This document shows positions 2,487 through 20,489 of a stretch of 64,000 nt of DNA, one piece after another. This DNA comes from a virus. The notes under the pieces are model-generated. The model saw only the letters and a program-made list of their open reading frames with translations. It was not told where the DNA came from and made no database searches. Position numbers and translations under genes: made by a program. The DNA is taken from positions 64,001 through 128,000 of IMG/VR virus record IMGVR_UViG_3300025012_000031. One strand, 5' to 3'. Position 1 is the stretch's first letter. Every line of letters begins with the position of its first letter.

Positions 2487-2519
2487 ATTCCTCCAACAGA
2501 ATTTATGTTCTGTTGTTAT

Positions 2520-3305: not shown

Positions 3306-3324
3306 TTCATCATTCTTTCATAAG

Positions 3325-3398: not shown

Positions 3399-3590
3399 AT
3401 AAAGTCTTTATTTCGTCATTCTAAGCAGCAGGGACCTCATATCCGTCGGTTCCTGTTTACTTAAAACTTTAACATCTTTACAGCCACACCAAGGACAGTC
3501 TACACCAACTGCGGGTGATTGCCATTCATGGTTGCATTGAATCTCTGTGTTCTTACAAAGTAGAATAAACATCTTTCATTCTTTCTTAAG

Positions 3591-3665
3591 CTCCGCCTAC
3601 AGGACTCGAACCTGTCTCAGTCTCGGTTAACAGCCGAGTGTCGTCGCCCGGACGACTCAAGCGGA
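3591..3665 (-). tRNA. tRNA-Asn(GTT), 5' end overlapped by endonuclease stop codon
   Basis: CTCGG-CT GTT AA-CCGAG; T-arm ACAGG TTCGAGT CCTGT. Confidence 0.9.
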
Positions 3666-4274: not shown

Positions 4275-4322
4275 GATAAAGAACCTTTCTTGGTGTCTTT
4301 ATCGTATTTATAAATTCTATTT

Positions 4323-4355
4323 AAGTCAGCTGCTCTACCAATGAGCCACCTGGGA
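4323..4355 (-). pseudogene. 5' half of a tRNA (Asn-like), truncated at the anticodon loop
   Basis: TCCCAGG TG GCTC ATTGGTA GAGC A GCTGA CT, followed directly by the endonuclease promoter. Confidence 0.75.
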
Positions 4356-4571
4356 ATGTAATTTTGAAAAGGTAGATTGGTACCTTTCCTTTTTCAATAG
4401 TTCATACCCAACCGTACTAGACCAAATCATTTATCAGTCAGAAATCTCGAGGTCATTGCTTCAACGGCTCAAGGCCTCCACTACTCGGCATCACAGAATC
4501 AAAATCGTCGCATATAAAATAGTGAGCATATTTTATCGCCTAGAGCAGAAGCTCCGATTAATGTATTTGTT

Positions 4572-4648
4572 TGGTCGAGGCGGCCGGAATCGAACCGACA
4601 TCTACCTGGTTAAAAGCCAGATGTAAAACCAATTTTTACTACGCCCCG
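4572..4648 (-). tRNA. tRNA-Lys(TTT)
   Basis: TCTGG-CT TTT AA-CCAGG; ACCA. Confidence 0.9.
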
Positions 4649-4658
4649 ATAAAGCAAG

Positions 4659-4741
4659 TCAGGGCGGGGGGATTCGAACCCACGATGCGGTTTCCCGCTC
4701 TCGATTAAAAGTCGAGTGTAGTACCTCTCTACGACGCCCTG
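4659..4741 (-). tRNA. tRNA with Lys(TTT) anticodon and long variable arm
   Basis: CTCGA-CT TTT AA-TCGAG then GCGG-GAAA-CCGC arm. Confidence 0.75.
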
Positions 4742-4747
4742 AAGGTA

Positions 4748-4823
4748 TGGTGCGCGCAGTGGGAATTGAACCTACAACCTTCCGGTTAAGAGCCGGGTAC
4801 TCTGCCAATTGAGTTATGCGCGC
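4748..4823 (-). tRNA. tRNA-Lys(CTT)
   Basis: CCCGG-CT CTT AA-CCGGA; ACCA. Confidence 0.92.
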
Positions 4824-4941
4824 ATATTAAATTCTGTCTCCTGGTTTAGACCCAGGTTTCTGTTTGTATTTCATCTTGTGTACTCCTTGTTAATTATGAA
4901 GCTATTATATAACATTGTAATGAATATGTAAATAGAAAAGT

Positions 4942-5352
4942 TTATTTGAAAACGTAAGGTGTTCTTTTTTCTTTAAGACCGACATTGTTCGCCGTTTTTA
5001 CAATTTCACCTTTTTTAATCTGGATGATGTTTTGGATTTCAACTTCATCGCCTTGTCCACGATAACCGTTTCCAGTATCGATGATGTATGTTTTCTTTTC
5101 GCCCACCTTACCGTATTCTCCACCCGAACCGATGATGAAAACCTCTTGCCACTTGACAGGATAACCAGAGCCGCGTAGACAAACCATGACCGTCTGATCG
5201 TATTCTTTATCCATCGCGAGAATTTCTTCAATGGTCGTTTTACTCTTCGGGAAATGATAACCCTTCATGATGTACCAATCAGCACGTCTGACTGGCTTAT
5301 ATCCACCGGGACCTTCAGAAATGATTCCTAAAACTTTATCGAAATTATTCAT
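4942..5352 (-). CDS. MNNFD-family protein
   Basis: MNNFDKVLGIISEG; GGAG RBS. Confidence 0.55.
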   Translation of the reverse strand: MNNFDKVLGIISEGPGGYKPVRRADWYIMKGYHFPKSKTTIEEILAMDKEYDQTVMVCLRGSGYPVKWQEVFIIGSGGEYGKVGEKKTYIIDTGNGYRGQGDEVEIQNIIQIKKGEIVKTANNVGLKEKRTPYVFK

Positions 5353-5373
5353 AAGTAAATCTCCCTTGTTTGT

Positions 5374-5449
5374 TGGTACCGACGGTAGGATTCGAACCTA
5401 CGACCTTGGAGGTAGAAGCTCCCTGCTCTGTCCACTGGGCTACGACGGC
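5374..5449 (-). tRNA. tRNA-Arg(TCT)
   Basis: GGGAG-CT TCT AC-CTCCA; ACCA. Confidence 0.9.
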
Positions 5450-5459
5450 ATATGTAACT

Positions 5460-5795
5460 TTAATTTAATCTTGAATTGATATGAGTGACTGTCCCTAGTG
5501 TAGGATGTGTATACTCCGTGGTCCTATGATTGATTCGAGCAATCTCTTTTGTTCCGCGTGTTCCCTCCTTGAATCCTATCGTTTTCATAATATACGGGAC
5601 TTTATTGTCATCGCCGCCGGTGAATGTTCCAACAGTACGATCAGACGTGTCCAAGTATACACCGTGTCCTAATTTGAACTTAACAGGATCAAAAGAATCG
5701 CGCTTCAAATCTAATCCAACAAGATAATCCGACAGAGCCTTTTGTGTTGGCGCTGCTTCATTCAAAACTCTAACGATCTTATCAAAGTTATTCAT
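5460..5795 (-). CDS. MNNFD-family protein
   Basis: MNNFDKIVRVLNEA; AGGAG RBS. Confidence 0.55.
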   Translation of the reverse strand: MNNFDKIVRVLNEAAPTQKALSDYLVGLDLKRDSFDPVKFKLGHGVYLDTSDRTVGTFTGGDDNKVPYIMKTIGFKEGTRGTKEIARINHRTTEYTHPTLGTVTHINSRLN

Positions 5796-5818
5796 GTATG
5801 ATCTCCTTGTTAAATTGT

Positions 5819-5890
5819 TGGTGCCCCACGATTGAGTCGAACAATCTCTTCCTGGTTCGAAGCCAAGAGTCCGGTTCCGCCGGGTCGGGC
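5819..5890 (-). tRNA. tRNA-Arg(TCG), non-canonical D-arm
   Basis: CTTGG-CT TCG AA-CCAGG; D-stem CCGG/CCGG abuts acceptor. Confidence 0.75.
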
Positions 5891-5911
5891 ATATGTTTTA
5901 TTTATCAGCGG

Positions 5912-5983
5912 TCCCCTCGGGAGGAGTCGAGCCTCTCACGACCAGCGTTCGTAGCACCGGCGCCGCAGTCCCACGGCGAGGGG
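5912..5983 (-). tRNA. tRNA-Arg(ACG), non-canonical D-arm
   Basis: CGGTG-CT ACG AA-CGCTG; acceptor CCCCTCG/CGAGGGG. Confidence 0.75.
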
Positions 5984-6173
5984 ATAATCATTAATCAAAG
6001 AATGTGGTCTTTTTGTCTTTTCTTTGTCTGACCGTTGAGCCGCAGTGCGGACATTTACTTCCAACTTGAACGAGATCTAGGTCACAGTTCATACACCAAA
6101 ACTGAAATGCCTTTGAGGGGTTGCGAGCTTTTTCTCTGTTCGTTGGTCTGTAAGAAACATCTTCGACTTCCAT

Positions 6174-6548
6174 TCATTTCCCTTTATAAAATGCAACCTT
6201 ACCAAAAACCTTAACAGCACGATAGTAATTACGAGCAATCTCTAACCGAGTCAGGCGTAAGAATTTCGGATTGAACCAGGGTTTCTTGTTGATGATGTTT
6301 TTCATATTCAAATAGAAGACAACATCAGCATACTTTTTATCTTTGTCAGTTATGCCTTCCCTATACATCCAATCATGGATTTTACAGGCATCTTTAACAC
6401 TAAGAAAAAGAATTCTATCGGGAACTATATCAACTTTCCAACCGTTGGGTCCGCAACCGGCACTAACGATCTTTCTTACTTCTTCGCTTGCATTCCAATA
6501 ATTATCTGAAGCAATAATACCGAGTTGTTTAAGTTTTGTATCTGTCAA
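6174..6548 (-). CDS. Phospholipase A2-like / DUF1353-like protein
   Basis: GCG...ACKIHDWMY...K..AD..F..N pattern. Confidence 0.5.
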   Translation of the reverse strand: MTDTKLKQLGIIASDNYWNASEEVRKIVSAGCGPNGWKVDIVPDRILFLSVKDACKIHDWMYREGITDKDKKYADVVFYLNMKNIINKKPWFNPKFLRLTRLEIARNYYRAVKVFGKVAFYKGK

Positions 6549-6849
6549 AGGAGATTCCTAATTTACTTTTTATGAATCGGGTTGTCACAATCTCCACAAT
6601 GTACATAAACGAATTGGGCACTTGCATCAGAGAATTTTTTATCACAACTGGCTATGTATTTACATTTACCGATGGTGACGATTTCCCATGTTTTACCTTT
6701 TGATTTATCAACATACTTTTGGTAGTCTTTGATGTTGTTTGTGGCATTGTTCTTTGTATTATAAAGTTCTGATACCCAAACTATAACCAATGCCAACACT
6801 ATAAACCAAAATATGTTTTTCTTGCTCATTGATTACCTCATTCATTAGT

Positions 6850-6928
6850 TGGTAGGCCAGGTGGGAGTCGAACCCACAAAAACATCTGCTTTTGAAACAG
6901 ACCGCAATACCAGTTAGCGTACTGACCC
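6850..6928 (-). tRNA. tRNA-Leu(CAA), short variable loop
   Basis: TCTGT-TT CAA AA-GCAGA; ACCA. Confidence 0.85.
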
Positions 6929-7082
6929 ATGTTTAATTTTCACATAACGAACGTCTGGTTTAGTCTGTTTACATTTATCACAAGTTAATGTTCCGTCCCA
7001 ATTATCATAAAGGGACATTTCTTTAAAGGTTCCACCACAAGAACATTTCTCGTTTAATTTTACATTCATTCGTTTTTCTCCT

Positions 7083-7125
7083 TGGTAGCCACAGAGGGAT
7101 TCGAACCCATCACTGTCTGGCTTCT
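7083..7125 (-). pseudogene. 3' half of a displaced tRNA-Leu
   Basis: AGAA GCCAG ACAGT GATGGG TTCGAAT CCCTC TGTGGCT ACCA; acceptor strand pairs with the 5' remnant at 7755-7779. Confidence 0.8.
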
Positions 7126-7131
7126 TATGAG

Positions 7132-7206
7132 TGCGCCACCCGGGGGTCGAACCCGGAAGCAGCTGATTCTAAGTCAGCTAGGTATGCCAATTCCCTTCAG
7201 CGGCGC
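7132..7206 (-). tRNA. tRNA-Leu(TAG), overlapped by 3' end of HNH ORF
   Basis: GCTGA-CT TAG AA-TCAGC; acceptor GCGCCGC/GTGGCGC. Confidence 0.9.
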
Positions 7207-7698
7207 ATTTTTCTTTCTTCTAAACGTTGGTGTCTGTGAATGACAATTCGGACACAATATCCTCAAATTAAGTTTAGAATTGTCTTTGTTATTACCGTTT
7301 ATGTGATCTAATTCAAAAGATATCGGTTTTCCGTTCCAATCGCTAATACCACACCAAAGACAAGAATTATTCTGTTCTTCAAGAATAATTCGTCTTTTTA
7401 TTGCTTCTGAAAAATCTTCAAATTTACCAAAATTAATTTTTCGTTGTAAATTTTCTGATTTTTTATTTTTTGCTTTTTTACGATCTTCTATGGTAAAAAT
7501 TTTCCGCCTTTTATCAAAGCCTTTCTTAAAAGGACAACCACCGGAAGCAGATTGACGGCCCTTCAATTTTTCGCTGACGCGTTGATTAATTTCTTCTCTT
7601 TTGTTTTTAGTAGAAAATCCACGGGCACATATTGACGAACAGAATCTACCAGACCCATAAAGACCATCATGATCCTTATTACAGTTTTCACAAATCAT
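7174..7698 (-). mobile_element. Free-standing HNH homing endonuclease
   Basis: C..C...ELDHINGN..DN...NLR.LCPNCHSQT; TATAAATA at 7733-7740. Confidence 0.85.
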
Positions 7699-7754
7699 TT
7701 TTGAACTCCCAGAATATATTTTTATTTTATTTTATTTATATTCTGTGGGTTCAA

Positions 7755-7779
7755 TCTGCCGTAGTTGGGCTATGTGGCC
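7755..7779 (-). pseudogene. 5' part (acceptor strand and D-arm) of displaced tRNA-Leu
   Basis: GGCCACA TAGCCCAACTACGGCAGA, nearly identical to the D-arm of tRNA-Leu(TAA) at 8127-8203. Confidence 0.8.
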
Positions 7780-8126
7780 ATACTTTTACTATGTGATGCT
7801 ACAATTAGAGACTTCCCAATTGCAAAACGGATTCTCAATACAACGTCGAACCTTCTTCATGAGAATTCCAACCTTATCAACAGCATCTCCAAATCGAACG
7901 ATTGTGTCAGGACGATATAGTTGTCCGTTAACGAATAACGGAATCTTTTCAAATTCATCATTCGTCATTTCATCAAATGACGGTTCAATTTGAATGTGTT
8001 CGTTCTTTATCTCGGAAATGATTTCGCCTTCTGTTGCAATATGCTCAAAGTATCTGGCATTTGCTCTGTAGTAAAATCTTTCAAGTGATGTCATTTAATT
8101 TCACTCCATTTATAATTGTTTGTGAG

Positions 8127-8203
8127 TACCCGCAGGGAGATTCGAACTCACCACTTAGTAGGTCTTAAATCTACTGCCTCTGCCTTAGTTGGGCTATGCG
8201 GGC
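8127..8203 (-). tRNA. tRNA-Leu(TAA)
   Basis: GTAGA-TT TAA GA-CCTAC; bulged T-stem. Confidence 0.85.
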
Positions 8204-8212
8204 AAAATATTT

Positions 8213-8242
8213 GTGGAGCTGGCCGGGGTCGAACCGGCACTC
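8213..8242 (-). pseudogene. 3' fragment (T-arm plus acceptor strand) of an Ala-type tRNA
   Basis: GCCGG TTCGACC CCGGC CAGCTCC AC immediately after the endonuclease stop; U70 Ala determinant. Confidence 0.65.
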
Positions 8243-8911
8243 TTACCAATTTTCTATTTTAATTTTTAGTTCTTCCAAAGACAAAGAACACTTCATATTC
8301 TTTTTCATATTATCAGTGTGTGGCATCAAGATACAATTTGCGGGATGCGCTATGATCTCTGGAGAAATATCATTATTCCAACCGAACTTTATTGAAATAG
8401 CATGATCTCTTGAAATACCGTTCGGATTATCACCGCGATTCTTTGCTTTATACCAACCATGAACACCGATTAGACCAAAATCAAATTTATCAGGAAAATC
8501 ATTTAAAGAAAACTTGAATTGACAATCACGGCGATAATTCTTATAATCATCGCCTAAACATTTCTTCGCTCTTCTTTTGCCCCTCATAATGTTTGATAAT
8601 TTTATAGCGCTACTTGCTATAGATGGGTGATCTTTTTTCTGTTTTCCTTTATTCCAGATCGGAACATTATTTGGATTCAGATTATGTTGATTCCCAATAT
8701 CGGTATGCGATCTCCAATAATGAAAACTAATACCCATCTTTGGTCTTAACTTATTACAAATGGGACACTTATAGAGATCGCCAATCTGTTCAAACATGCT
8801 TAATGAAATCTGGTGATCTTTTTTATTACCGCATGAAATATTGTGACGGGCGATATTATTACTAGTAAAGTTCTTTAAACATTTTTCACATGTGATTTTG
8901 GTTCGATTCAT
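8243..8911 (-). mobile_element. Zn-finger/HNH-like homing-type endonuclease
   Basis: C2H2-like fingers, PIWNKG (NUMOD3-like), SRDH.IS...HPANC.L...N..KN; TATAAATA at 8930-8937. Confidence 0.7.
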
Positions 8912-8972
8912 AAAATATCCTTTTTAGAATATTTATAAATGCTCTACCAAAATCACTATAATTTTGTTTTTG

Positions 8973-9046
8973 TGGACCGAGAGGGAATCGAACCCTTCAA
9001 GTCAGGAAGCGTGCAAGGCCACCCCGTAACCCCATTACTTCAGCCC
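8973..9046 (-). tRNA. tRNA-Ala(TGC)
   Basis: G3:U70 acceptor GGGCTGA/TCGGTCC A; loop CT TGC AC. Confidence 0.8.
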
Positions 9047-9117
9047 ATCTAAAAATATTATTTATTGTTTTGGGTTTGTTCAGCTTTCGACGGCATATCA
9101 GAATCAGAACGAATTCA

Positions 9118-9489
9118 TTAACTTAATAATCGATCCTGCTTCACCACTGAACGTGAGTCGCGATTTGGTGTAACATCAATTCTTGGCATTACGCTCAGGT
9201 CACAATAATCTCGATTCTCATAATTATGTTTGTCCCAGTCAAAAGCATAAGCTTTTCTACCATGTGGTTTCTGTTGTCCAACATCCCACCAAACTCTCCA
9301 ACGGACGGCACCCGAGGCCTCAAAAACAGCAAAAGCTAAATCATCCGATGAAGCAGCATCAGAAGTCCACGGCACTGCGATCAAATCATAGTCTCTTGAA
9401 AGACTTCCGTGTACACCGATTGCATATCCAAGCGCTCTTGCTGCTTCTCTAATCTTTGGAAGCAGTTCGAGGAAACCTTCTTTTGTCAT
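9118..9489 (-). CDS. Minimal nucleotidyltransferase-like protein
   Basis: HGSLSRDYDLIAVPW (GS..RDxD) motif; start moved to MTKEG because the upstream part overlaps a tRNA-like RNA. Confidence 0.6.
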   Translation of the reverse strand: MTKEGFLELLPKIREAARALGYAIGVHGSLSRDYDLIAVPWTSDAASSDDLAFAVFEASGAVRWRVWWDVGQQKPHGRKAYAFDWDKHNYENRDYCDLSVMPRIDVTPNRDSRSVVKQDRLLS

Positions 9490-9499
9490 ATCATTCCTT

Positions 9500-9632
9500 A
9501 GCGGTGTTGGGCTTGATACCAACTCTCTTTCGTTCAAGAAAGACTACCTTCAGTTACTGAACCATCCAGCGGCATTATCCGGTTGAGGTCATTTCCAGAA
9601 GCTATCTCATGTGTCCATCCACATCGACCGCT
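9500..9632 (-). ncRNA. tRNA-like RNA with about 75-nt insert in place of anticodon arm
   Basis: AGCGGT/ACCGCT acceptor, ATGTG-GATGGA-CACAT D-like arm, GTTGG-TATCAAGC-CCAAC T-like arm. Confidence 0.55.
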
Positions 9633-9648
9633 TTTTTGTTATAGTGAG

Positions 9649-9720
9649 TCTCCAGGGCAGGAATCGAACCTGCATTTCCCGGGTAGGAGCCGAGCGCTCT
9701 GTCCATTGAGTTACAAGGAG
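9649..9720 (-). tRNA. tRNA-Arg(CCT)
   Basis: CTCGG-CT CCT AC-CCGGG. Confidence 0.85.
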
Positions 9721-9727
9721 ATGTTTT

Positions 9728-9799
9728 TGGCCACCGCGCTGGGAGTCGAACCCAGTCAATCAGATTCAGAGTCTGATCAGAAGGCCACTTCACGCGGCA
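9728..9799 (-). tRNA. tRNA-Gln(CTG)
   Basis: TCAGA-CT CTG AA-TCTGA; GCCA end. Confidence 0.85.
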
Positions 9800-10639
9800 A
9801 TGTTTTATGCATTTCATACCGACGAAACATCGAAATAATCATCTCTTCTGTCCAAAACACTGGAAATAGATAATCTTTCTTTGGTTGGATATTTGATCTT
9901 TTGACCTTGGGGCCGCTGTACTTGATGTAACCATAATCTTTAACAAATTCGTCCCACAACTTGAGCTGCATAATCTTTTCGAGTTCAGAAGTCATTATTC
10001 ATCCCTCCGTTTTGCGCACCTGATATCAGAAGCAAGATTCATTATCTCATTGGTGATCGGTTCAGAAATATCTTTAAGATTCTTTGAAACAGCTTCTTCT
10101 AACTCTAATTTCGATGCTATAATTTGTAAACGGATTCTAAGTTCTCTGGTGTTCATTCATTCACCGCCAAATCGGAAAGAGTGTAATGAATTCTGTTATT
10201 ACAATTTTAAGCTCTTCGAGAGCTTTTGGATTAGCGATGATATAAACGACATTCCCGAAAAAGCAACCAATGAAATAGAGAACACCGCCACCCAATGGAA
10301 TTAATGCTTCTATCTCTTCACTCCGACAAACCCAGCCAATGAATATTACAAGGGCAAAAACATGAGTCCAAAGGAAGGCGAAATATCCGAGAAAGGCTCC
10401 GAGGATAAAAAGTATCGTAAAGAAAATATGCATTATTTCATTCCCATCGGGAACTGGGTTCTGAACCGCATCTCTGTTTCAAGTTCTTTATATTTTCTAC
10501 CGTCTCCCGGTTTTATTCCGCTGATTCGATAACCGTCCTGTGTTACGTAAGAAGCATCACCGTTGACATCAAACTGAACGTTTGGAACATCTCTTCCGTC
10601 TTCCATGTTTGTTCCTCGCTTTCGTTAATTTAATTTTCG

Positions 10640-10724
10640 TCGCGATGGCGGGACTCGAACCCGCACGCCCTTTCGGACACCAGACTCTCATTCTGGCACG
10701 TTTCCCTAATTACATCACATCGCG
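10640..10724 (-). tRNA. tRNA-Leu(GAG), long variable arm
   Basis: CCAGA-AT GAG AG-TCTGG; variable arm TGTCC-GAAA-GGGCG. Confidence 0.85.
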
Positions 10725-10781
10725 ATACATGACAAGACGCTCAGGGAATACCCCGATACCTTTAGTCCTGCCCTCATTATG

Positions 10782-11288
10782 TTACCAAACACCCAACCTC
10801 ACTAATTCCGCTTCAAGATTTGAAACATTACCCCTGAACACTGAAAGGAATGATGGCATTTTCGGTGTTGTACGAAGTTTCATTTTTGCTTGTGTTGGTG
10901 TTCTATTATCTTTCTTGTTGTTGCAACTAAAGCAGGCTAATACTGTGTTCTCCCATGTTGATTTACCACCTTGTGCTCGTGGGATAATATGGTCAACAGT
11001 AACGTCCTGTCCTTGTAAATCTGACTTGCCGCAGTACTGACATGTATGATCATCTCGTAATGCAACACCCCTTTTTGTCCAAGGAACCTTTGTTTTTGAT
11101 TTTCGGAAAGTTTTAATGATTGTAAGTAAACGAATAACTTTTGGTAAGAAGAAGTTCTTCGCAAGTTGTACATTCGTGTTGACTAGAACCTCGGCTTTGT
11201 CAAGGAAAACAAGACGAACCGCCTCTTTCCAATGAATCTCATTTAGCGGATTCATATCAGCATTTAATACGATGACTGGCTCAAACAT
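10782..11288 (-). CDS. HNH endonuclease (McrA-like, VLNA..PL N-terminus type)
   Basis: RD.HTCQYCG...TVDHIIPRAQGG.STWEN.V.AC..CN.KK.NRTP. Confidence 0.9.
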   Translation of the reverse strand: MFEPVIVLNADMNPLNEIHWKEAVRLVFLDKAEVLVNTNVQLAKNFFLPKVIRLLTIIKTFRKSKTKVPWTKRGVALRDDHTCQYCGKSDLQGQDVTVDHIIPRAQGGKSTWENTVLACFSCNNKKDNRTPTQAKMKLRTTPKMPSFLSVFRGNVSNLEAELVRLGVW

Positions 11289-11349
11289 AATATCTTCCTT
11301 CCGTTGTTTACTCTATTTATTCATTTTAATTCCTCCTGATATTATTCAG

Positions 11350-11424
11350 AGATCGCGGTGGGAGTCGAACCCACTTTTCAAGCTTGAGAAGCAAGCGGCC
11401 TAACCATTCGTAGACGACGCGATC
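11350..11424 (-). tRNA. tRNA-Glu(CTC), weak anticodon stem; overlapped by GIY-YIG ORF end
   Basis: Glu-type D-arm GTCT...AGGC; CTTGC-TT CTC AA-GCTTG; acceptor GATCGCG/CGCGATC. Confidence 0.7.
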
Positions 11425-12092
11425 ATTAATCTTACTCTACCCTTTCTAAAACCTTCGGGTATTTTGTTACTATTTTTAATCTTCGTATTTTCTATACCGT
11501 TCGTAATCCACATTGTCCCAAACTGTGAATTACCACTACCCATCTGATGTTTTGAGTTAGTAGCGCCGATCTTTGCTTTTGTAGCATCAGTATGACGTTT
11601 GTTCTTAAATCCAATCTTTCCAATTTCAGAACAATGTTTGATGATCTTTTCTTTAAAAGCAGGATCATTTTTAAATTTATCGGAAAATGCAACAGAACCG
11701 TTCATTGCTCTTGATTTAAAAAATTTTCTGAATTCTGGATCATTCTTTAGTTTTTCTTGAAAGCCTTTCCTTGCCGCCGAGCAATCAGAACCGCCGCCCG
11801 TACCACCAATTTTCAAATTAATACACAACGGCATCTTTAAAAGATCTTCATTGATAATATCTTTCTCTCTCGCTGCTAATGATTTTCTATCAGAAAGATA
11901 TTCAAGAATTTCAAATGAGCAAGCTTCTTTACCGTACTTATTGATGATGTATCTGATTCGTTTTCCTGAACCCATATAACCATCATTGAGATTGTCTGTC
12001 GAATGCATACCAATATAAAATTTACCAGATGCAATATGGGTTGTCTTGTAGATGACGTGGAACTTTCTTCTGTCTGCTCTGTCAGTTTTCAT
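11400..12092 (-). mobile_element. Seg-like GIY-YIG homing endonuclease
   Basis: VIYKTT...GKFYIG.H...DGYMGSG; NUMOD3; MWITNG; GGAGG RBS and TATAAATA at 12112-12119. Confidence 0.9.
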
Positions 12093-12143
12093 AAATACCT
12101 CCGTATAGAAGTATTTATAAAAGTATGTCAGAAATGTTAGCGG

Positions 12144-12223
12144 CAAGCGCAGGAAGACTCGAACTCCTAGGTACCGGTTTTGGAGGCCGGCTTGTGTCCC
12201 TTCACAAATTAACCACTGCGCCT
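12144..12223 (-). tRNA. tRNA-Trp(CCA) with expanded acceptor-to-D connector
   Basis: CCGGC-CT CCA AA-ACCGG; G73. Confidence 0.75.
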
Positions 12224-12238
12224 ATGTTTTAAACTTTG

Positions 12239-12310
12239 TGCAACCGACGGGAGTCGGACCCGCATTGTCTAGGTTGAAAGCCTAGGTTCCTACCGTTAGA
12301 AGACGATTGC
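12239..12310 (-). tRNA. tRNA-Glu(TTC)
   Basis: CTAGG-CT TTC AA-CCTAG. Confidence 0.88.
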
Positions 12311-12315
12311 ATGTT

Positions 12316-12476
12316 ATTTGTTGACTCACGTGGAACGATCAAATAATCTTCCTTACACCAATCCACTTCCACATGGATGAGACGGCACAAATTCTCAACT
12401 CCCCGCATCTGGGCGCTGTTTTTCGGTGGAAGACGAGTGCCTAAATTATCTGATAATTCCGCGTCAATCAACAAAT
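12316..12476 (-). ncRNA. About 160-nt rod-like structured RNA (6S-like candidate)
   Basis: Ends pair: ATTTGTTGATT/AGTCAACAAAT, ATCAGATAATTT/AGATTATTTGAT, CTTCCAC/GTGGAAG; starts just after a sigma70 promoter. Confidence 0.55.
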
Positions 12477-12484
12477 GAAGGTGT

Positions 12485-12513
12485 ATTTTAACAAAGAACG
12501 ATGTTAATGTCAA
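12485..12513 (-). promoter_or_regulatory. sigma70 promoter for tRNA array 1
   Basis: TTGACA-17-TAAAAT. Confidence 0.8.
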
Positions 12514-12533
12514 TCATTATTTTACTACAAACT

Positions 12534-12562
12534 AAAAAGGTTCTAGCAAAAGCTAGAACCTT
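12534..12562 (-). terminator. Intrinsic terminator (attenuator 1)
   Basis: AAGGTTCTAGC-TTTT-GCTAGAACCTT-TTT. Confidence 0.85.
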
Positions 12563-12588
12563 GGATGAGGATTCACTTCTTGCTGTAA

Positions 12589-12696
12589 TTATGCGCCTTT
12601 GTCATTCTCCCATGCTTTACCCACGAGTGCGCGTTCTTCAAGACCTGTGGCTAAAAGAATATTGCAATTGAGTTGTGGGGAAATTCGCTGTGACAT
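12589..12696 (-). CDS. Leader peptide 1 (35 aa) MSQRISPQLNCNILLATGLEERALVGKAWENDKGA
   Basis: AGGA RBS, downstream of TATAAATA (12771-12778) and upstream of antiterminator/terminator. Confidence 0.75.
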   Translation of the reverse strand: MSQRISPQLNCNILLATGLEERALVGKAWENDKGA

Positions 12697-13020
12697 GAGT
12701 AATCCTGGCTATCGCCGATGAACGGTGATGTAACTGTTTCTACACTTGGTAGATCAGATGTTTAAAATTTTATTTATAACAGATGTAGATTTTACTTTGA
12801 TTTTCTTCCGCCAACAACTGCACCAAGAAGAACCGATGCATGTAAAAGGTCGGCGGGTGGTTGTTTCTTTTCTTTGAACCACGGCCCGAATTTGATGAGA
12901 GCCGCGACGATCAACAAGCAAGTAATGTAGATGAATAAATTCTGGTCAATCGTTTCCATTTTTATTTCTCCCATGTTGTAATTGATTATGGGTCAATTAT
13001 AACAAAGGATGAACCGAATG

Positions 13021-13302
13021 TCAACAACTTTTTTCTTTGTTTCTTGCTTCTATTTCATAGGGGTTTTTATCATACCCATATCGAATATTATACCAAAGAT
13101 ACTTTATTGAAAACTTAACGATTCCATCTCGCTTCCACTGTACCTTATGACAATCTTCATGGCGGCGCAATTCATCAGTAACACCATCTTTGTTTGAAGA
13201 GTACCATGTACATTGCCCAAGCGTGAATCCGAAAATAGTGGACCCCTCTTTAGCAACCGACTTAGCAAAAATCAAGGGTATTTTTGAATTATAGATGTCC
13301 AT
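13021..13302 (-). CDS. HExxH metallopeptidase-like protein (DUF4157-like)
   Basis: GFTLG...RHEDCHKVQW...Y..NPYEIEA. Confidence 0.65.
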   Translation of the reverse strand: MDIYNSKIPLIFAKSVAKEGSTIFGFTLGQCTWYSSNKDGVTDELRRHEDCHKVQWKRDGIVKFSIKYLWYNIRYGYDKNPYEIEARNKEKSC

Positions 13303-13310
13303 CGAACCTC

Positions 13311-13571
13311 TTATTCTTCCACGCTGTTAATCAATTCTTCAACATCTTTCATCCACACATCTTCACTTTGTTGTCCGAATGAGTTGACCGGAATCATCGT
13401 TGTTTTCATCAAGTCAACCATGTGCTTGACGTTCTCTGATGCTGTCTCTTTTGCATATAGATAGAAATATCCCTTTCCCTTTGTGAGAGCTAACCCAGGA
13501 TGTTTCTTTTCTAACTTCTTGTTGAATGAAATGAGTGATTCGGTTATGATAAATGTTTTGAATTTCTGCAA
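13311..13571 (-). CDS. Hypothetical protein with CTS-like N-terminus
   Basis: MQKFKTFIITE (TTG start). Confidence 0.45.
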   Translation of the reverse strand: MQKFKTFIITESLISFNKKLEKKHPGLALTKGKGYFYLYAKETASENVKHMVDLMKTTMIPVNSFGQQSEDVWMKDVEELINSVEE

Positions 13572-13583
13572 AGTATTTTCCTA

Positions 13584-13612
13584 TTGACAGGTCAATGAAT
13601 TCGTGTTATAAT
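13584..13612 (+). promoter_or_regulatory. Consensus sigma70 promoter in antisense orientation
   Basis: TTGACA-17-TATAAT on + strand within a minus-strand gene block. Confidence 0.7.
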
Positions 13613-13654
13613 AGAACCATGTTCGCCGGAAAAAAGATAATATAGATGAGTCAA

Positions 13655-14032
13655 TTAGTCGAAGAAATTCGGCTTTTCTTTTTTGAGGTCGGCTGTAATT
13701 TTTGAAATGATTTCTGATCTTTCTTTATTCCAGCGAGCCGCGGCCCAGACATAGTGTATGAGACCTTTCTTAACGATCTCTAGAGTACCACCATTGATCT
13801 TCTTATCACCAGCATAGCCAACCCATCGTTTGACCGTCTTATCCTTGATCGGATTGAGATCAGCATCGACACCTTCGGCCTTCAGCTTCGTGCCACGAAA
13901 ATCAGCTACCCAGCAATTTCCATCTTTGATGAATTTGATCTTCTCAATTTCTCGCTTGAACATATTGTGAGCCATGTCACGATAGCGAGAGTCATTGTTG
14001 TCTTCAGCAAAATATTTCTTGAATCCTAGCAT
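13655..14032 (-). CDS. Hypothetical protein with CTS-like N-terminus
   Basis: MLGFKKYFAE. Confidence 0.5.
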   Translation of the reverse strand: MLGFKKYFAEDNNDSRYRDMAHNMFKREIEKIKFIKDGNCWVADFRGTKLKAEGVDADLNPIKDKTVKRWVGYAGDKKINGGTLEIVKKGLIHYVWAAARWNKERSEIISKITADLKKEKPNFFD

Positions 14033-14108
14033 AATTAGACCACCTTAATCTCGATGACATAGAATTGCTTTTTCTGATTCTTGTCATCATGATATTTTCT
14101 TGATGTTG

Positions 14109-14366
14109 TCAAGTTGACACCGAAACGCTCAAAAAATATTTATTATAAACCCCGCCCTTAATCCAGTCATCAGCCAAATTTTCAAGTCGTTTTTTCTCGA
14201 AGAATGAGCAGGGGTACATAAGTTTTATCGTATCACCGCCAACAAGTTTCGCAAAACCATTGCCGCCACTCTCTGACATACCGAAGTCATCGCCCTGAAG
14301 TATTTTGAGTGCATCTTTAATACCGAAATTTTTATCTTCAGTAATCAATTCATAATGTCTTTTCAT
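14109..14366 (-). CDS. Hypothetical protein, possibly extended by -1 frameshift to 14035
   Basis: MKRHYELITE; T6 run at 14131-14136. Confidence 0.45.
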   Translation of the reverse strand: MKRHYELITEDKNFGIKDALKILQGDDFGMSESGGNGFAKLVGGDTIKLMYPCSFFEKKRLENLADDWIKGGVYNKYFLSVSVST

Positions 14367-14650
14367 AAATCATACTTTCTTCTACCGTTCTGTGGATGAA
14401 CAGTAGGGTCTGGTTTAATAGCTGACAGCGGTATAGTCTTCTTCCGTTCTTCGACATCAAAAACATCGCCGAATTTTCCACCAGCGGCTTTGGCCAACTC
14501 AATTACTTTTGCTTTTGCTGAACTACGAGAATTCGCCTCAATAGTACCATGTTGCTTTACCTTTTCGCCGTCAACATACCAATAGCTAAAAGTCTTTTCA
14601 GCTTTGCCTTCAGCAAGAACTGTTATAACCTTATCGAAGTTATTCAGCAC
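14363..14650 (-). CDS. MNNFD-family protein (GTG start)
   Basis: (M)LNNFDKVITVLAEG. Confidence 0.5.
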   Translation of the reverse strand: MLNNFDKVITVLAEGKAEKTFSYWYVDGEKVKQHGTIEANSRSSAKAKVIELAKAAGGKFGDVFDVEERKKTIPLSAIKPDPTVHPQNGRRKYDL

Positions 14651-14927
14651 GCTCGATCTCCTCAAGGAAAGCGTCATAAGCAGCAATAGCAGTCTTCAGT
14701 TTCCCGACGGTTCTAACGCTATAGTTCTCGTCTGTGATTTTTGCCCAACCCATGAGCGGCTTTGACTTCAGTAGGTGACCGATGCCATACATGAAGTCGG
14801 TTGCCGTAGCGCTATCATCAAACTCTTTCACCTTTGCGACTTTCTCAATGTTCCATTCTTCGTTGATCGGTGCGGGTTTAGTTCCTTCGGACTCCTTTAT
14901 CAATTCATCATGTCTTTTCATATTCAT
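14640..14927 (-). CDS. Hypothetical protein with CTS-like N-terminus
   Basis: MNMKRHDELIKE; AGGAG RBS. Confidence 0.5.
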   Translation of the reverse strand: MNMKRHDELIKESEGTKPAPINEEWNIEKVAKVKEFDDSATATDFMYGIGHLLKSKPLMGWAKITDENYSVRTVGKLKTAIAAYDAFLEEIERAE

Positions 14928-14934
14928 ATTCTCC

Positions 14935-16401
14935 TTAAGCGTAACGGTGGACGAGGTCTTGCCAACGAGCAACACCAGATTTTCTGATGCCGAGAGCGCC
15001 GAGGAATGTTCTCATATTGATCTGTTTATTATTGCCGCTTCCCTCTTTTTTGAGAAACTCAAGGACCTCAAGTTTCATCGCATGCTCAACATCTGGTTCG
15101 ATGTGGTCGAGAAGAGTCTCAATACGCTTGAAAATATCCTTGGCCGACAATGTAATGTCAATGGTGAAAGAACGGGAGAGGAGCGCCGGCTCCATCTTCG
15201 ACTGCGGAAGGTTCGAAATGAAGATAACCTGGCCGGAGAAGTCCACATAATTCGGGAGCTTTCCTTTCTTCGCCAAATCCAATTTTTCGTCCTCATCGAC
15301 ACCGTCAGGATCGTATGTATTCGCGTTGATCCAGGAGATACGGCGAATGGCCTTCGTGTCAAGAGCGGCCTTCAGAATGTTTCTTGCATCTGCATCCTTA
15401 AAGACGGAGTCACAGTCGTCGAATAGGATTAACTTGTTCGGACTCTTGACGAACCTAGCATACATACCGTATGCCGTAACGGAACCCGAGATGCTGAACC
15501 AATCCTCGTTTTCAACAAGACCGCTTTCTTTGATAACTTGTTCGATAACATATGTCTTACCGACACCCGCCATACCAGTGACGACCAGCGAGTTACGAAA
15601 CTTGCCAGTGACGAGCGTGGTGAGGTCTTCGAGGTCCTTGAATACAATATCTGGGTCGGCGGTTGGGGTTGCATCGAGTCTCTTCTGAGCAATATCGCCG
15701 ATATGAGAAACCTCGGGCTTACCGTGCTCACCGATAACCACAACGCCCCACTTTGCAAGGCTGATAGAATTATCAGTGGTGCGGTCAATAAGACCCTTCA
15801 GCGCCGGGTCTTTCGTTTTCATGTGCCGCCAACGGTTCGGAAGACCTTGCTTATAAACAGACTTGGTCGCAACTTTACCATTCACCGTCAATGTATATTC
15901 ACCGCTGCCGTCGGGGGCAAGGTCGATGTAACCGGTGTCTGGAAGTTCTGCTGCCGTTTCTTCAATAGGATCAACGAGATGCATCTTCAAAGATTCCTTT
16001 AGTTTGACGGGCCCGACCTTCGGGTCCTTAATTAGTTCAACAATCGCCCCAAGAACCTGGACAATGTTCTTATCTTTGAGGTCAACATGGATCGTCGGTT
16101 TGTCCCATTTTGCATTGACGTCCCAGATGTCAACGGAGTCAATTTGGTCCGACGTATTACCACGAAGCCAGTTGATTCTAAACTGCTTCTTTGCATCGTC
16201 CCCGACAAAATAACGGAGACCGTACTTCCTCTTTCCTTCGACAGAGAACTCATCAACAACACCGAATTGGTAAAGTGTTTTGTGAAGCTGCTTTTCGAGA
16301 ACTCTCTTAATGAGTTTAACGGCTCTCTCAAGTTTATCTCCAGAAAATTGGGCTTCGTTGATAATTTGCAAATAATTACTAAAGGAAAGAACTTGTCTCA
16401 T
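14935..16401 (-). CDS. AAA+ ATPase domain protein, late-expressed
   Basis: Walker A GMAGVGKT, Walker B ILFDDCD, IFISN sensor, ALLSR arginine finger; TATAAATA 16433-16440. Confidence 0.85.
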   Translation of the reverse strand: MRQVLSFSNYLQIINEAQFSGDKLERAVKLIKRVLEKQLHKTLYQFGVVDEFSVEGKRKYGLRYFVGDDAKKQFRINWLRGNTSDQIDSVDIWDVNAKWDKPTIHVDLKDKNIVQVLGAIVELIKDPKVGPVKLKESLKMHLVDPIEETAAELPDTGYIDLAPDGSGEYTLTVNGKVATKSVYKQGLPNRWRHMKTKDPALKGLIDRTTDNSISLAKWGVVVIGEHGKPEVSHIGDIAQKRLDATPTADPDIVFKDLEDLTTLVTGKFRNSLVVTGMAGVGKTYVIEQVIKESGLVENEDWFSISGSVTAYGMYARFVKSPNKLILFDDCDSVFKDADARNILKAALDTKAIRRISWINANTYDPDGVDEDEKLDLAKKGKLPNYVDFSGQVIFISNLPQSKMEPALLSRSFTIDITLSAKDIFKRIETLLDHIEPDVEHAMKLEVLEFLKKEGSGNNKQINMRTFLGALGIRKSGVARWQDLVHRYA

Positions 16402-16507
16402 ATATGACCTCTCTGGTGCAGGAATTTTTAATTATTTATATTTCCTGATTCCAGAGATTTTTTAAAGTAAAATAATTAAATATCAGGTTTCTTGATCGAA
16501 GTCAAAC

Positions 16508-16556
16508 ACTAAAAGGCCCAACAGTTCAATCAAGAATCCGTTGGGCCTTTTAGTTT
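16508..16556. terminator. Bidirectional terminator
   Basis: actaaaaggcccaac...gttgggccttttagt inverted repeat. Confidence 0.7.
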
Positions 16557-16559
16557 AGT

Positions 16560-16949
16560 TTAAGCAACCGGAATGAAAGTTGCCATGTCGGAATAATTGC
16601 CTTTATACTTGACGGTGTAGAACTCTCCATCGAGCATTACGAGTTCACCGTCGGTCAGCTCCTGAGCGTTGGCCCACTTGAGTGCTTCCCGCTCATAATA
16701 ACTTTTATCAGAACAGATACAAGCGGAGCATTGATTGATCCATGCAACTTCTGTTTTCCTTGGAACCGACTTGTCAATTTCGATTGACTGCTCAATCTTT
16801 GCCTTAATTTCAGCAGCAACCTCAGAAGGCGTTTTATCACCGCGGGTAAATTTGTTTGTATAGTCAGCAGCAAAGAAACCCTTGATAGTAGCAACCGAAC
16901 CTTTTTTCCCATTGAGGATTACGTTTTCGTTGTGCTTAAGGAATTTCAT
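16560..16949 (-). CDS. Early hypothetical protein
   Basis: Follows TTGACA-17-TATTGT promoter and AGGAG RBS. Confidence 0.6.
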   Translation of the reverse strand: MKFLKHNENVILNGKKGSVATIKGFFAADYTNKFTRGDKTPSEVAAEIKAKIEQSIEIDKSVPRKTEVAWINQCSACICSDKSYYEREALKWANAQELTDGELVMLDGEFYTVKYKGNYSDMATFIPVA

Positions 16950-17781
16950 TTTTCATCTCCTGTTGGTTGTTTGATTGTTTGTTGGATAAACAATAACAAA
17001 GAAGATGATTGGTGTCAATAGAAAAAATGCACTTTTTTCATATAGATGAATTTTTATTCTCCGTCGTCCTTTTCACCGAGTTGGATGTCATAGACGATCG
17101 TTAGAACATATGGGCGCTTTGGCTGGAGTGGATCAATGACGAGGTTGGTTGACTTGATGTCGACAACAGACCCCTTCTTTGCTCGACGCTCTAACCATCG
17201 CTTGATGTTCTTCTGCATACCGTTGAGATCGGTGCATCGGAAGAATCGTATGGTCGTCATGGTGGTTTCTTACTCAGCTGGTCGCTTGAACTTCTCAATG
17301 AGAGCATCTGCTTCCGCCTCATCTGCTACCGGAAGGCACATGTTGTGGCCGACTACGTACTGCTGTTCTTTGATCGTGATCTTTCGCATCGGCCCGGATG
17401 TATCGACCTCGACGCCGTCTTGCATCTTGACTGTCATGGCTACCTCCTTATCTACAACGAACGGGTTGGGGTATATACCCGGTGCCCGCAACTGATCCAA
17501 ATACTTGAACAATGGAGATGCCGATTCCCTCCTGGTCAGTTTCGCCGCGAATTGTTGCAATCGCAAACAAAAATCCGTTAAGACACTGGGTCTCAATAGC
17601 ACCGGTTGTACGATCGGGGATATAAATTTTCTTCTCTTCAGCACGTGCATATCCTGATGCCAGGACTAATGCAACCATAACTGCGAACATAACATTTGTT
17701 TTCACTAGTGGCCTCCATTAGTTAAGAGTTCTTACCTTGCGGATATAGAATATCAAACTTTTGTGTGGATGTCAATAAAAA

Positions 17782-18282
17782 TTATGCTGCCCGCTTAATT
17801 TTTTTAACAGCAGCAGAATGATACACACAACTCTTATGAAGCCATTTTGATATCTCAAGCATATTTTCGAGATCGTCAACTAGGAAAATGTTGTTATTAT
17901 TTGCTATTTCTTGCAGTTTGCTTTTAACAAGTTTCCTGGAGCGATTTGATTCGACAATCTGGGCCACACTTGCACTCGGATCGTTACACAGATCATCAAT
18001 CATAAAAATGAAATAGCGATGCTTGTTTGCTCGTAAAGCCGAGGCAATAGAAAATCCAATCTCCGCCAACGAACCTTGTCCAGTCGTCTCAGACGTGACG
18101 GGAAATAGAATTATATCATCTTCTATCAGATGTTTGTTTTCATCTGCAACCATGCCCGGGGACCACGTACCTTCAGCGACCTGTGGGTTAAAGAAATCAA
18201 TACCATTTTTCTCATATTCATTTATAAACGGTTCGCGCCACTTGCTTGAACCACATGTACCAAAAAGACCAATCGTTATCAT
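17782..18282 (-). CDS. Nucleoside 2-deoxyribosyltransferase-like (Nuc_deoxyri_tr2-type) protein
   Basis: GLFGTCG.S.WR...FFNPQV..W...E....DIILF...SLAEIG. Confidence 0.6.
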   Translation of the reverse strand: MITIGLFGTCGSSKWREPFINEYEKNGIDFFNPQVAEGTWSPGMVADENKHLIEDDIILFPVTSETTGQGSLAEIGFSIASALRANKHRYFIFMIDDLCNDPSASVAQIVESNRSRKLVKSKLQEIANNNNIFLVDDLENMLEISKWLHKSCVYHSAAVKKIKRAA

Positions 18283-18544
18283 TTAGTTTCTCCTTTAATC
18301 ATTCTTCAACGATTACATCAGGATTTAAGCGAAATTGTTCCACATCTTCGGCAACTAAAAGATCATCTGCAATTGCACTGTGTGTTACTTTCCTCCCATC
18401 AAATCTTCTATAGCGTTTACGAGCCGGTTCAATTACTACTAAGGGTGTTGACATAAGTTCTCCTTGTTAATTGTTTAATTAGATACTATGAAGGGTCTGT
18501 TAGTTTAATGATAAACAATTAACAGACCCTTCATAAATGGTTGA

Positions 18545-18615
18545 CGATGAAGTCCAGAATCGAACTGGAACCTGCTGCCGTCAGGGCAGCCGTGCGTCCA
18601 TACACTACATTCATC
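18545..18615 (-). pseudogene. Aberrant tRNA (loop CC TGA CG, bulged acceptor)
   Basis: D-arm GTG/CAC; GCTGC/GCAGC stem; T-arm TCCAG TTCGATT CTGGA. Confidence 0.5.
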
Positions 18616-18693
18616 TAATAGACAAGCTGCCCGCGAAGCAGAACACCCAAACAGACTATAATGTCACTCCCTGGGTTAGGAGTCTCGAGATGT

Positions 18694-19968
18694 TTAAACC
18701 GCGAAGTTATTTACACCATCTCCGTGGTCAATTGAAAAAATTCTAAAGAAGTCACTATCACCGATATCAGTACCAGTATCTTGTGGATGACGGGTCATGA
18801 AGTAACGCGAAATCAACATAAAGTGTTCCTGGAATGTATCTGGATCAACCGCTGTTGCAATAAGATTAGAATAAGGCGAATAAATCAAACCACAATCGCC
18901 CGTGCAATCTTTCTCCCCCATATATCCAATTAGCACATAATGATCTGTGCTATAAAAATCGCACATTAGTGGCAACGTACCAACTTTACCGACATAATAG
19001 GGATTCTCTTCGTCTGGCTTTGTTTTTGTGTGGAGTGGGTTTGTGAGTAGCAGAGCGCATGTTGACGAATCGGCTAAAACAAACATCTTTCTTGGCTTGC
19101 GGATTGCTCTTACGATTTGTTCCGCAGCATTGTAAATGTTGGTATAGATATCACTAGCAACGGCCATGATGTCGCCCTGAATACCATATGAATTGAGTAG
19201 AACAACATCATTCATTGGTGTGGCAATATCACGAAGATAAGCAATCGTCTCAATATCAATTTCTTGCTTGATTTCGGTTGAAAGTGTTTTGCCTGCTAGT
19301 TCGGTTCCCTCTACACCAAAGTAAGCCATATAATCTTGAAGCTTTTCTTTAGTGAATTTACTTTTGATTTTGCGGGACTTAACTTCTTTCAAGATTGTGC
19401 GAACTTCAAATTCAACATTCTTAACGAGTGAATTGTCGTCAAGGAACGGACCAGAATAATTCTTAAACACCTTCTTGATCGATGTTCTGTTAACAGATGA
19501 ATAGGTAACAGTACGAACATCCGGGACTTCTACTGTTCCGATGTCGGTTGTGTTGGTGACCAAAATTTTCGGAACGGCATTATCAACGATATCGATTCTT
19601 ACAAGAAGGAATGTACCTTCTTTAAAGATGACCTCGGCAACAGCACCAGCCGCTGAAAATGTCAATGAATCGCCAACGGCAATACCAGTCGTATCATCGA
19701 GAGCAATGATTCTACTCGTCTCAAGATGAATACCATCTGATAAAGATTTATCACCGGTGTAAATTGAGTACAGCGCCGCAATTTTTGCAGACGGAGACTT
19801 TGTTGGCTGCACATCAGCGATCTGGGTGATGAGCATTTCATTATAAAGATGATTGAGGAGCGGATAGATAAGTGGTTCCCAAGGAGCCATCGCAGTAGAA
19901 CCGCTTGATTCTTTGAGAGAATTATCTTTAAGAGTCTCAACTATTAATTTGTGATTCTGATTTTCCAT
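18694..19968 (-). CDS. T4 gp23/gp24-family capsid protein paralog (possible vertex protein)
   Basis: IADVQPT.SPS..I.AL, KSRKIK..FT.E..QD, EI..EID.E.I, GLIYSPY...DPDTFQ....SRY. Confidence 0.8.
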   Translation of the reverse strand: MENQNHKLIVETLKDNSLKESSGSTAMAPWEPLIYPLLNHLYNEMLITQIADVQPTKSPSAKIAALYSIYTGDKSLSDGIHLETSRIIALDDTTGIAVGDSLTFSAAGAVAEVIFKEGTFLLVRIDIVDNAVPKILVTNTTDIGTVEVPDVRTVTYSSVNRTSIKKVFKNYSGPFLDDNSLVKNVEFEVRTILKEVKSRKIKSKFTKEKLQDYMAYFGVEGTELAGKTLSTEIKQEIDIETIAYLRDIATPMNDVVLLNSYGIQGDIMAVASDIYTNIYNAAEQIVRAIRKPRKMFVLADSSTCALLLTNPLHTKTKPDEENPYYVGKVGTLPLMCDFYSTDHYVLIGYMGEKDCTGDCGLIYSPYSNLIATAVDPDTFQEHFMLISRYFMTRHPQDTGTDIGDSDFFRIFSIDHGDGVNNFAV

Positions 19969-20489
19969 GAATGTACCCCTTGTTGAAGTTTAAATTTATT
20001 TATCAACAAGGGAACTTCAGTATATGTGTTTTACTTTTTAAAATTCTTTCGTCATAAAGATTTCAATTATCATCGCATCAATCGCGCCGCGACTAACAAT
20101 ATTGAGTGAAAACGAATCACCATGACACGTGACAGCGCCACCATCGCCGAAAGATACGAATCCTGCGCTCAGTGGTTTATAGTGCGGAAATTTTTTCGTG
20201 AATGTTTCTGCAATGTCAGAGTGCTGTAATATCGAAGGAAAAAGAATCGGCACCTCGGCGTCAATCTTTGAATCAAACACAATATACTTCGTCTTAAGCA
20301 TCAGTGACAATCCTTTCTAAAGCATGTCTTTCAATTTTGCCTTGTTTTCATTTTTAACCTTTTGCATGCACTCCGCACACCCGTTTTCAAACACGGTTAT
20401 CTTCTTATCAGGGCTCATACATCGGCACTGACTAATGATTTTACCACAGGAACACTTATTTGTATAATGTTCGCCCAAGATGATTCTCC

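Follow-up and report, generated by a model that had tools for sequence, protein, structure and literature searches.

Candidate leader-peptide attenuators ahead of tRNA genes in an uncultured groundwater phage

The classical leaders trpL, hisL, leuL, and pheL carry tandem runs of one regulatory codon, and a single tRNA is sensed. Other leaders sense more than one: ilvGMEDA responds to isoleucine, leucine, and valine, and thr to threonine and isoleucine. In the trp attenuator, the stability of the terminator is roughly double that of the antiterminator. The locus described here may extend this principle to tRNA genes. It lies in a 64,000-nucleotide (nt) stretch, the window, that spans positions 64,001 to 128,000 of IMG/VR virus record IMGVR_UViG_3300025012_000031, part of a 155-kb uncultured virus contig from groundwater metagenomes. 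On the minus strand, a unit termed W1 joins a T4-type late promoter motif, a 35-codon open reading frame (ORF), and an intrinsic terminator, followed by a long array of tRNA genes (array 1). A second unit in the window, W2, and two in the closest relative found, R1 and R2, have the same build.

These four units are read here, with a probability of roughly 0.6, as ribosome-mediated attenuators that gate upstream transcription into tRNA genes, W1 adding its output to that of an unconditional early promoter. As in ilvGMEDA and thr, a short leader in which several regulatory amino acids are abundant would be translated, an intrinsic terminator would compete with an upstream pairing that excludes it, and the proposed logic would be the same: a ribosome at the stop codon favors termination, and a stalled one read-through. 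However, the genes regulated in those systems encode biosynthetic enzymes, whereas here they would be tRNA genes; the leaders here draw on as many as 13 amino acids, for the most part not in runs; and the units show no significant 1:2 hairpin, a T4-type late promoter, and, behind the W1 and R1 terminators, a further promoter. The trpL, hisL, leuL, and pheL attenuators resemble these units in that the antiterminator 5′ strand starts a few nucleotides after the leader stop codon, and in that the terminator has about twice the stability of the antiterminator. They differ in their tandem codons, since the cognate residues here are spread through the body of the ORF. Attenuation of pheST, through the pheM leader, likewise has an output that belongs to the translation apparatus, but that output is the synthetase for one amino acid, and here it would be the sensed tRNA species themselves.

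Two further comparisons are instructive. T-box riboswitches also couple tRNA status to the choice between terminator and antiterminator before translation-related genes. They bind uncharged tRNA directly, however, and need no ORF; moreover, an Rfam scan of window positions 12150-12850 returned tRNA and two sub-threshold, snoRNA-like chance matches and nothing else, with the T-box family unmatched. The tRNA cluster of T4, a gp55-type phage, is likewise a mixture of tRNAs with homing-endonuclease genes and the RNAs rnaC and rnaD, but T4 has no short ORF and T-run terminator before its first tRNA.

In the proposed mechanism, transcripts from the late promoter TATAAATA and from a σ70-type promoter upstream of it would carry the ORF of 25-35 codons. 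A fast ribosome that arrives at the UAA would cover the first 10-15 nt of the 26-29-nt spacer between stop codon and terminator; the terminator hairpin would then fold, and transcription would stop before the tRNA genes. Where a charged tRNA is scarce, the ribosome would stall in the ORF body, the free spacer would pair with the terminator 5′ arm, and polymerase would read through into the tRNA genes. Because the leader draws on the amino acids that the downstream tRNAs carry, tRNA supply would be under negative feedback, with slower decoding probably leading the phage to make more tRNA. At W1, a σ70-type promoter beyond the terminator would drive a structured RNA and the array unconditionally, presumably early. 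At both W1 and R1, the attenuator would add conditional transcription from upstream, mattering most late in infection. We infer leader translation, stalling, read-through, and timing from the sequence; the link to host anticodon nucleases drawn in the initial annotation of this locus is speculation.

The sequence contains the W1 elements that this annotation had listed. All are on the minus strand. The late promoter motif (12778-12771) lies 74 nt 5′ of the leader ATG, and a Shine-Dalgarno sequence, AGGA (12706-12703), stands 6 nt from it; the 35-codon ORF (12696-12589) ends in TAA (12591-12589). A 26-nt spacer (12588-12563) separates the stop codon from the intrinsic terminator (12562-12532), which consists of an 11-bp stem (12562-12537) with a UUUU loop, followed by a T run (predicted ΔG −16.7 kcal/mol), and is the top-listed terminator-like site in window positions 1-20000. 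The candidate antiterminator strand, spacer nt 9-21 (12580-12568), would pair with the terminator 5′ arm and loop.

The TATAAATA motif occurs at 13 sites in the window, where 3.2 would be expected for the two strands together; every site is on the minus (gene) strand, and several of them sit 5′ of ORF starts. The contig also encodes a homologue of gp55, the T4 late sigma factor (genome 134289-134663, E = 6e-18), that matches annotated late sigma factors in 2,167 phage records. Given this enrichment on the gene strand and the gp55 homologue, it is reasonable to regard TATAAATA as a T4-type, gp55-dependent late promoter. Upstream of it, a σ70-type promoter (13024-12996, minus strand; TTGACA-17-TATAAT, 12/12, with TG before the −10) heads a unit composed of a 55/60-amino acid (aa) ORF and the W1 leader, which would thus be transcribed both early and late. 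The 55/60-aa ORF (12974-12792, minus strand) has a hydrophobic center, lies between the early and late promoters, and has no counterpart at the same position in the related phage.

The sister units emerged from a scan for terminators with TATAAATA no more than 400 nt upstream, covering the contig and its closest relative found, a 96.7-kb Logan contig (L020/L021/L105) whose ATPase is 58% identical. Four units with an ORF of 25-35 codons were flagged (W1, W2, R1, and R2), together with two sites whose ORFs have just 6 and 13 codons. Their common build is TATAAATA; 23-74 nt; a Shine-Dalgarno sequence; ATG and 25-35 codons; TAA; a 26-29-nt spacer; a terminator of 11-13 bp; and tRNAs. In all four, the putative Shine-Dalgarno sequence lies 5-8 nt from the ATG and the frame ends in TAA. 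The stop-to-terminator spacing of 26-29 nt was dropped as evidence, being ordinary among gene terminators. Two candidate sites were rejected: a hairpin at genome 63286, which is inside a coding frame, and a TATAAATA motif before tRNA-Leu(CAA) in the relative, which is antisense inside a resolvase gene.

W2 (window 29495-29301, minus strand) comprises TATAAATA at 29495-29488, the ribosome-binding sequence AAGAGG, a 30-codon ORF (29453-29361), a 29-nt spacer, and a 13-bp terminator (29331-29301). Its array reads Pro, Asp, Pro, Asp, Phe, Tyr, His, Ser, Glu, Ser. The first of these genes, tRNA-Pro (29284-29210, minus strand), begins 16 nt past the terminator hairpin, and no promoter intervenes, the next σ70-type promoter being at 29169-29141; tRNA-Pro would therefore be reachable by read-through only. 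R1 (L021 2891-3088) has a 34-codon ORF and the array Ser, Ala, Thr, Val, Gln, His, Gln, Asn, Met, Thr, Thr, Val, Cys; it sits, as W1 does, downstream of the ATPase gene that is 58% identical, and a σ70-type promoter and tRNA-like RNAs follow it. R2 (L021 18813-18976) has a 25-codon ORF and an array of four Leu, Arg, and Met, with a fifth Leu further on. Beyond the R2 terminator, the sequence reads as a TATAAT-like −10 element with an upstream TG.

Each leader was compared with the amino acids of the tRNAs behind it. In-set residues number 22 of 29 in W2 (9.8 expected, P = 4e-6; 0 of 25,933 proteome windows), 24 of 33 in R1 (12.6 expected, P = 6e-5), 10 of 24 in R2 (3.9 expected, P = 3e-3), and 29 of 34 in W1 (24.3 expected, P = 0.05). 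When leaders and arrays were swapped, all 12 pairs gave P > 0.17, and several were depleted. Against a null of 1,015 short ORFs from six frames, P was 0.03, 0.001, 0.005, and 0.016 for W1, W2, R1, and R2. When the best prefix of the tRNA order was taken, so that array boundaries were not left to the analyst's choice, P was 0.067, 5e-5, 1.4e-3, and 1.9e-3 for the units in the same sequence. Leader composition thus tracks the array, as the initial annotation had proposed to check against the proteome, in W2, R1, and R2, and is marginal in W1. Counts at the codon level rank the units as those at the amino-acid level do.

Two features of these leaders are pertinent to the proposed logic. The positional counterparts W1 and R1 encode unrelated peptides, each in keeping with the tRNA set of its own unit; those two sets differ. 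Moreover, a ribosome stalled near the stop codon would still cover the spacer, so the model predicts that cognate residues lie in the ORF body: they make up 78 of 100 residues there and 7 of 20 in the last five codons (Fisher P = 3e-4, in a post hoc test). Leu is encoded by five different codons in the R2 leader, which has a cognate codon for each of the unit's seven tRNA genes.

The second line of evidence concerns the spacer, with pairing energies computed while the terminator 3′ arm was withheld. Under these conditions, spacer and 5′ arm pair at −5.8, −10.0, −8.4, and −9.7 kcal/mol in W1, W2, R1, and R2, the pairing strand beginning 1-9 nt after the stop codon. The duplex exceeds that of shuffled spacers in W2, R1, and R2 (P = 0.018, 0.006, and 0.012), and among 47 terminator hairpins from three phage sequences the lowest z scores belong to R2 (−3.0), R1 (−2.8), and W2 (−2.3). 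Masking 13 nt after the stop codon, as a ribosome there would, reduces the energies to −3.1, −5.3, −0.9, and −4.1 kcal/mol (W1, W2, R1, R2). When the ORF is included in the fold, no structure competes with the antiterminator. The terminators themselves reach −16 to −20 kcal/mol, about twice the stability of the antiterminators (−6 to −10 kcal/mol).

W1 is the weakest of the four units, and both of its diagnostic signals, composition and antiterminator, are weak. The antiterminator proposed for it in the initial annotation does form with the 3′ arm withheld, and masking does reduce its energy as that annotation anticipated, but the unmasked pairing is no better than that of shuffled spacers (P about 0.2, z −0.8). 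Composition gives a similarly divided picture. The W1 leader holds all 12 non-Met amino-acid types of its own array, F, Y, and H are absent, and the joint probability of full type coverage and the in-set count is 6e-3. Enrichment as such is marginal, with P of 0.03-0.07 across tests (empirical P = 0.06 for the count of 29 of 34). The claim that 31 of 35 residues belong to the set becomes 28 of 35 with the tool-called tRNA set, or 29 of 34 once the initiator Met is excluded and the Met and Thr tRNAs past the window edge are added; P is 0.01-0.02 with the set originally listed and, against proteome windows, 0.03-0.06 with called sets. Since the amino acids of array 1 make up 63-71% of the proteome, so broad an array leaves the W1 composition test little power. 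Nor was the suggested match of leader codons to exact anticodons upheld in full: CGA, CGC, and TGG have no cognate tRNA in array 1, and overall the array tRNAs could read 25 of 34 codons, where 20.8 would be expected (P = 0.09).

A near-consensus σ70-type promoter (12513-12485, minus strand; TTGACA-17-TAAAAT, 11/12, with the TG of an extended −10), absent from the initial annotation, lies 3′ of the W1 terminator, between it and the first RNA genes, and both hexamers are invariant among strain variants. The genes behind W1 are consequently not reached only by way of its terminator; the attenuator would merely add conditional read-through to unconditional transcription, and the original statement that array 1 is controlled by an attenuator was too strong.

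Several observations besides the W1 promoter, composition, and pairing weigh against attenuation. R1, too, is followed by a σ70-type promoter. A protector or pause (1:2) hairpin internal to the ORF is significant in none of the four units (folding z +0.2, −2.0, +0.1, and −1.5). The codon-level match is no better than that at the amino-acid level, and the Ser codons of R1 are mostly unfit for its single tRNA-Ser. The units were found in two phages only. Finally, strain variants of the window (97.6-100% identity) leave the W1 leader and terminator invariant, so they offer no evidence from covariation. The unit family therefore lacks two features of classical attenuators: the protector hairpin; and, at W1, downstream genes free of a promoter. 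The trp/his-type attenuation proposed for W1 is supported in part: the array-specific composition and spacer complementarity of the sister units lend it strong, if indirect, support.

Could W1 be an ordinary small gene, or a chance ORF, that ends a short early/late transcription unit, with a terminator that insulates the RNA genes, themselves driven by the promoter at 12513-12485, and a composition due to chance? The strong promoter directly behind the terminator would suit this arrangement, as would a composition P of only about 0.05 for an array whose amino acids amount to about 71% of the proteome, and an antiterminator that does not rise above shuffled controls. Phages KVP40, CZ01, and Atu_ph07 also place a small ORF, 28 nt, and a terminator near tRNAs without an antiterminator signal. 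What a small gene leaves unexplained is the array-specific composition and spacer complementarity of the sister units; the existence of R1, whose unrelated peptide at the W1 position fits a different array; and the joint coverage-and-count result at W1 itself. This account of W1 is considered rather unlikely. That the ORF is untranslated altogether, the region being the 3′ end of the 55/60-aa gene and TATAAATA and AGGA chance motifs, is highly improbable. It would accord with the leader being called as a gene on just 2 of the approximately 20 contigs that carry the neighboring gene. However, every one of the 13 TATAAATA sites is on the gene strand, several before ORF starts; all four units share the placement of the Shine-Dalgarno sequence and the TAA end; and composition that tracks an array requires a reading frame.

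In a different reading, translated leaders sense decoding, but with an output other than read-through, such as translation-dependent stability or processing of the upstream transcript, or a functional peptide. Terminators far more stable than the antiterminators would fit such an output, as would a match at the level of amino acids rather than codons, and promoters downstream of W1, R1, and R2 that make read-through needless for most tRNAs. The trp attenuator, however, has the same stability ratio, and the complementarity between spacer and 5′ arm is specific to these units among the 47 terminators. Moreover, tRNA-Pro stands behind W2 without another visible promoter, and the peptides of the counterparts W1 and R1 are not conserved in sequence. 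An alternative output is accordingly given little weight, and attenuation of upstream transcription is preferred for the four units.

Array 1 differs in part from the content first ascribed to it. It runs to position 871 in the window and then on to a terminator at genome 59565-59535. About 11 kb of tRNAs are interspersed here with homing-endonuclease and other protein genes; further TATAAATA sites lie within it at 12112, 8930, 7733, and 4305. The tRNAs are Glu, Leu (four), Gln (two), Arg (two), Ala, Lys (three), Asn, Cys, Val (two), Ile (three), Gly (two), Met, and Thr, the last four genes falling past the window edge. The tRNA-Trp listed initially was not found by ARAGORN or Rfam in the window or the contig. 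The listed tRNA-Ser is called at a relaxed threshold but not at default thresholds.

The array opens with tRNA-Glu(UUC) (12310-12238, minus strand). Between this gene and the promoter lies a structured RNA of about 160 nt (12476-12316, minus strand), which the initial annotation does not list. A long helix closes its fold, and four compensatory base-pair changes distinguish strain variants. It has no match in Rfam and may be comparable to rnaC and rnaD, the small stable RNAs of T4. After tRNA-Glu, a GIY-YIG-type endonuclease gene (12146-11400, minus strand) is missing from strain variants L004 and L005 and replaced by different ORFs, of 290 and 230 aa, in L006 and L007, which suggests turnover of mobile endonucleases inside array 1. 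A tRNA-like gene that overlaps the end of the endonuclease ORF (11424-11350, minus strand) scores 37.5 bits in Rfam with default ARAGORN silent; it reads as Glu(CUC) and has two mismatches in the anticodon stem.

Relatives of the W1 region are few. The phage collection yielded no DNA match, a degenerate leader pattern has no match in viral contigs, the neighboring genes have distant or zero relatives in viral contigs, and both metagenome scans were empty. Upstream, a 93-aa ORF (13302-13021, minus strand) with an HExxH-like motif has homologues at 47-62% identity in unrelated phage contexts, without synteny, and looks like a mobile small gene.

Other phages were inspected for comparable arrangements. 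In L023, whose ATPase is 37% identical, a 31-codon ORF (12793-12888) holds all 20 amino acids, as only 3 of 32,097 proteome windows do, and is followed by a 32-nt spacer, a terminator, and an array of 22 tRNAs. It lacks an exact TATAAATA, shows neither an antiterminator signal nor set-specific enrichment, and is a candidate only. No tRNAs lie near the more distant ATPase homologues L103 and L104, nor near the ATPase homologue of BUDD. The Vibrio schizoT4-like phages KVP40 (L115 6418-6256) and CZ01 (L116 8705-8543) share, inside their tRNA clusters, a conserved ORF of 37 aa that is followed, after a spacer of 28 nt, by a terminator whose stem is identical in both. Together with Atu_ph07 they were not counted as units, as they have no spacer complementarity and arrays too broad for the composition test. 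The cultured phage phiCbK has three units of promoter, short ORF, and terminator before tRNA blocks. One of them (L130 3041-3178) encodes 45 aa before Pro (two), Lys (two), Leu (three), Ala, and Ser (two); 31 of 44 leader residues are in this set (empirical P = 2e-4), and composition is not significant in the other two. With a unit of the same logic in a cultured phage, the attenuator idea becomes testable at the bench.

The wider proposal, that phages of several lineages gate tRNA blocks by multi-amino-acid leader attenuators, each leader listing the tRNAs behind it, so that slow decoding of any of these would switch on exactly those tRNA genes, has odds slightly better than even. Slow decoding could arise from codon-usage mismatch, starvation, or host defenses that cleave tRNA, and the feedback loop would be closed, the same tRNAs being both what is sensed and what is regulated. 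The purpose and the expression of phage tRNA genes have been under debate for decades; codon compensation and, lately, escape from tRNA-cleaving defenses (PMC10264068, PMC11555353) are among the proposals. Full-text literature searches turned up no account of tRNA genes, phage or bacterial, under leader-peptide attenuation, in agreement with the initial annotation, which knew of no such attenuator for phage tRNA arrays. If the proposal is true, phages regulate tRNA supply on demand; classical attenuation extends from amino-acid and synthetase genes to tRNA genes; and leader composition becomes a sequence signature that predicts which tRNAs a phage treats as limiting.

Some neighboring elements merit mention. 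Just upstream of the W2 late promoter, a very acidic 36-aa ORF (29621-29511, minus strand) has a strong AAAGGAGG ribosome-binding site. In the related phage, the stretch from the promoter behind R1 to the first tRNA (L020 3900-4380) includes three elements with acceptor-like ends and with GGTTCGATTCC motifs that resemble a T arm; ARAGORN and Rfam call none of them, no Rfam family matches this tRNA-like region, and they may be tRNA mimics. A Ro60/TROVE-vWA protein is encoded among the tRNA genes of the same phage (L021 10001-11371). Finally, a tRNA with a CUA anticodon, of the amber-suppressor type, lies near the tRNA arrays in all three related phages: at C1:51422-51496 (genome coordinates, outside the window), L021 11709-11783, and L108 3379-3453.

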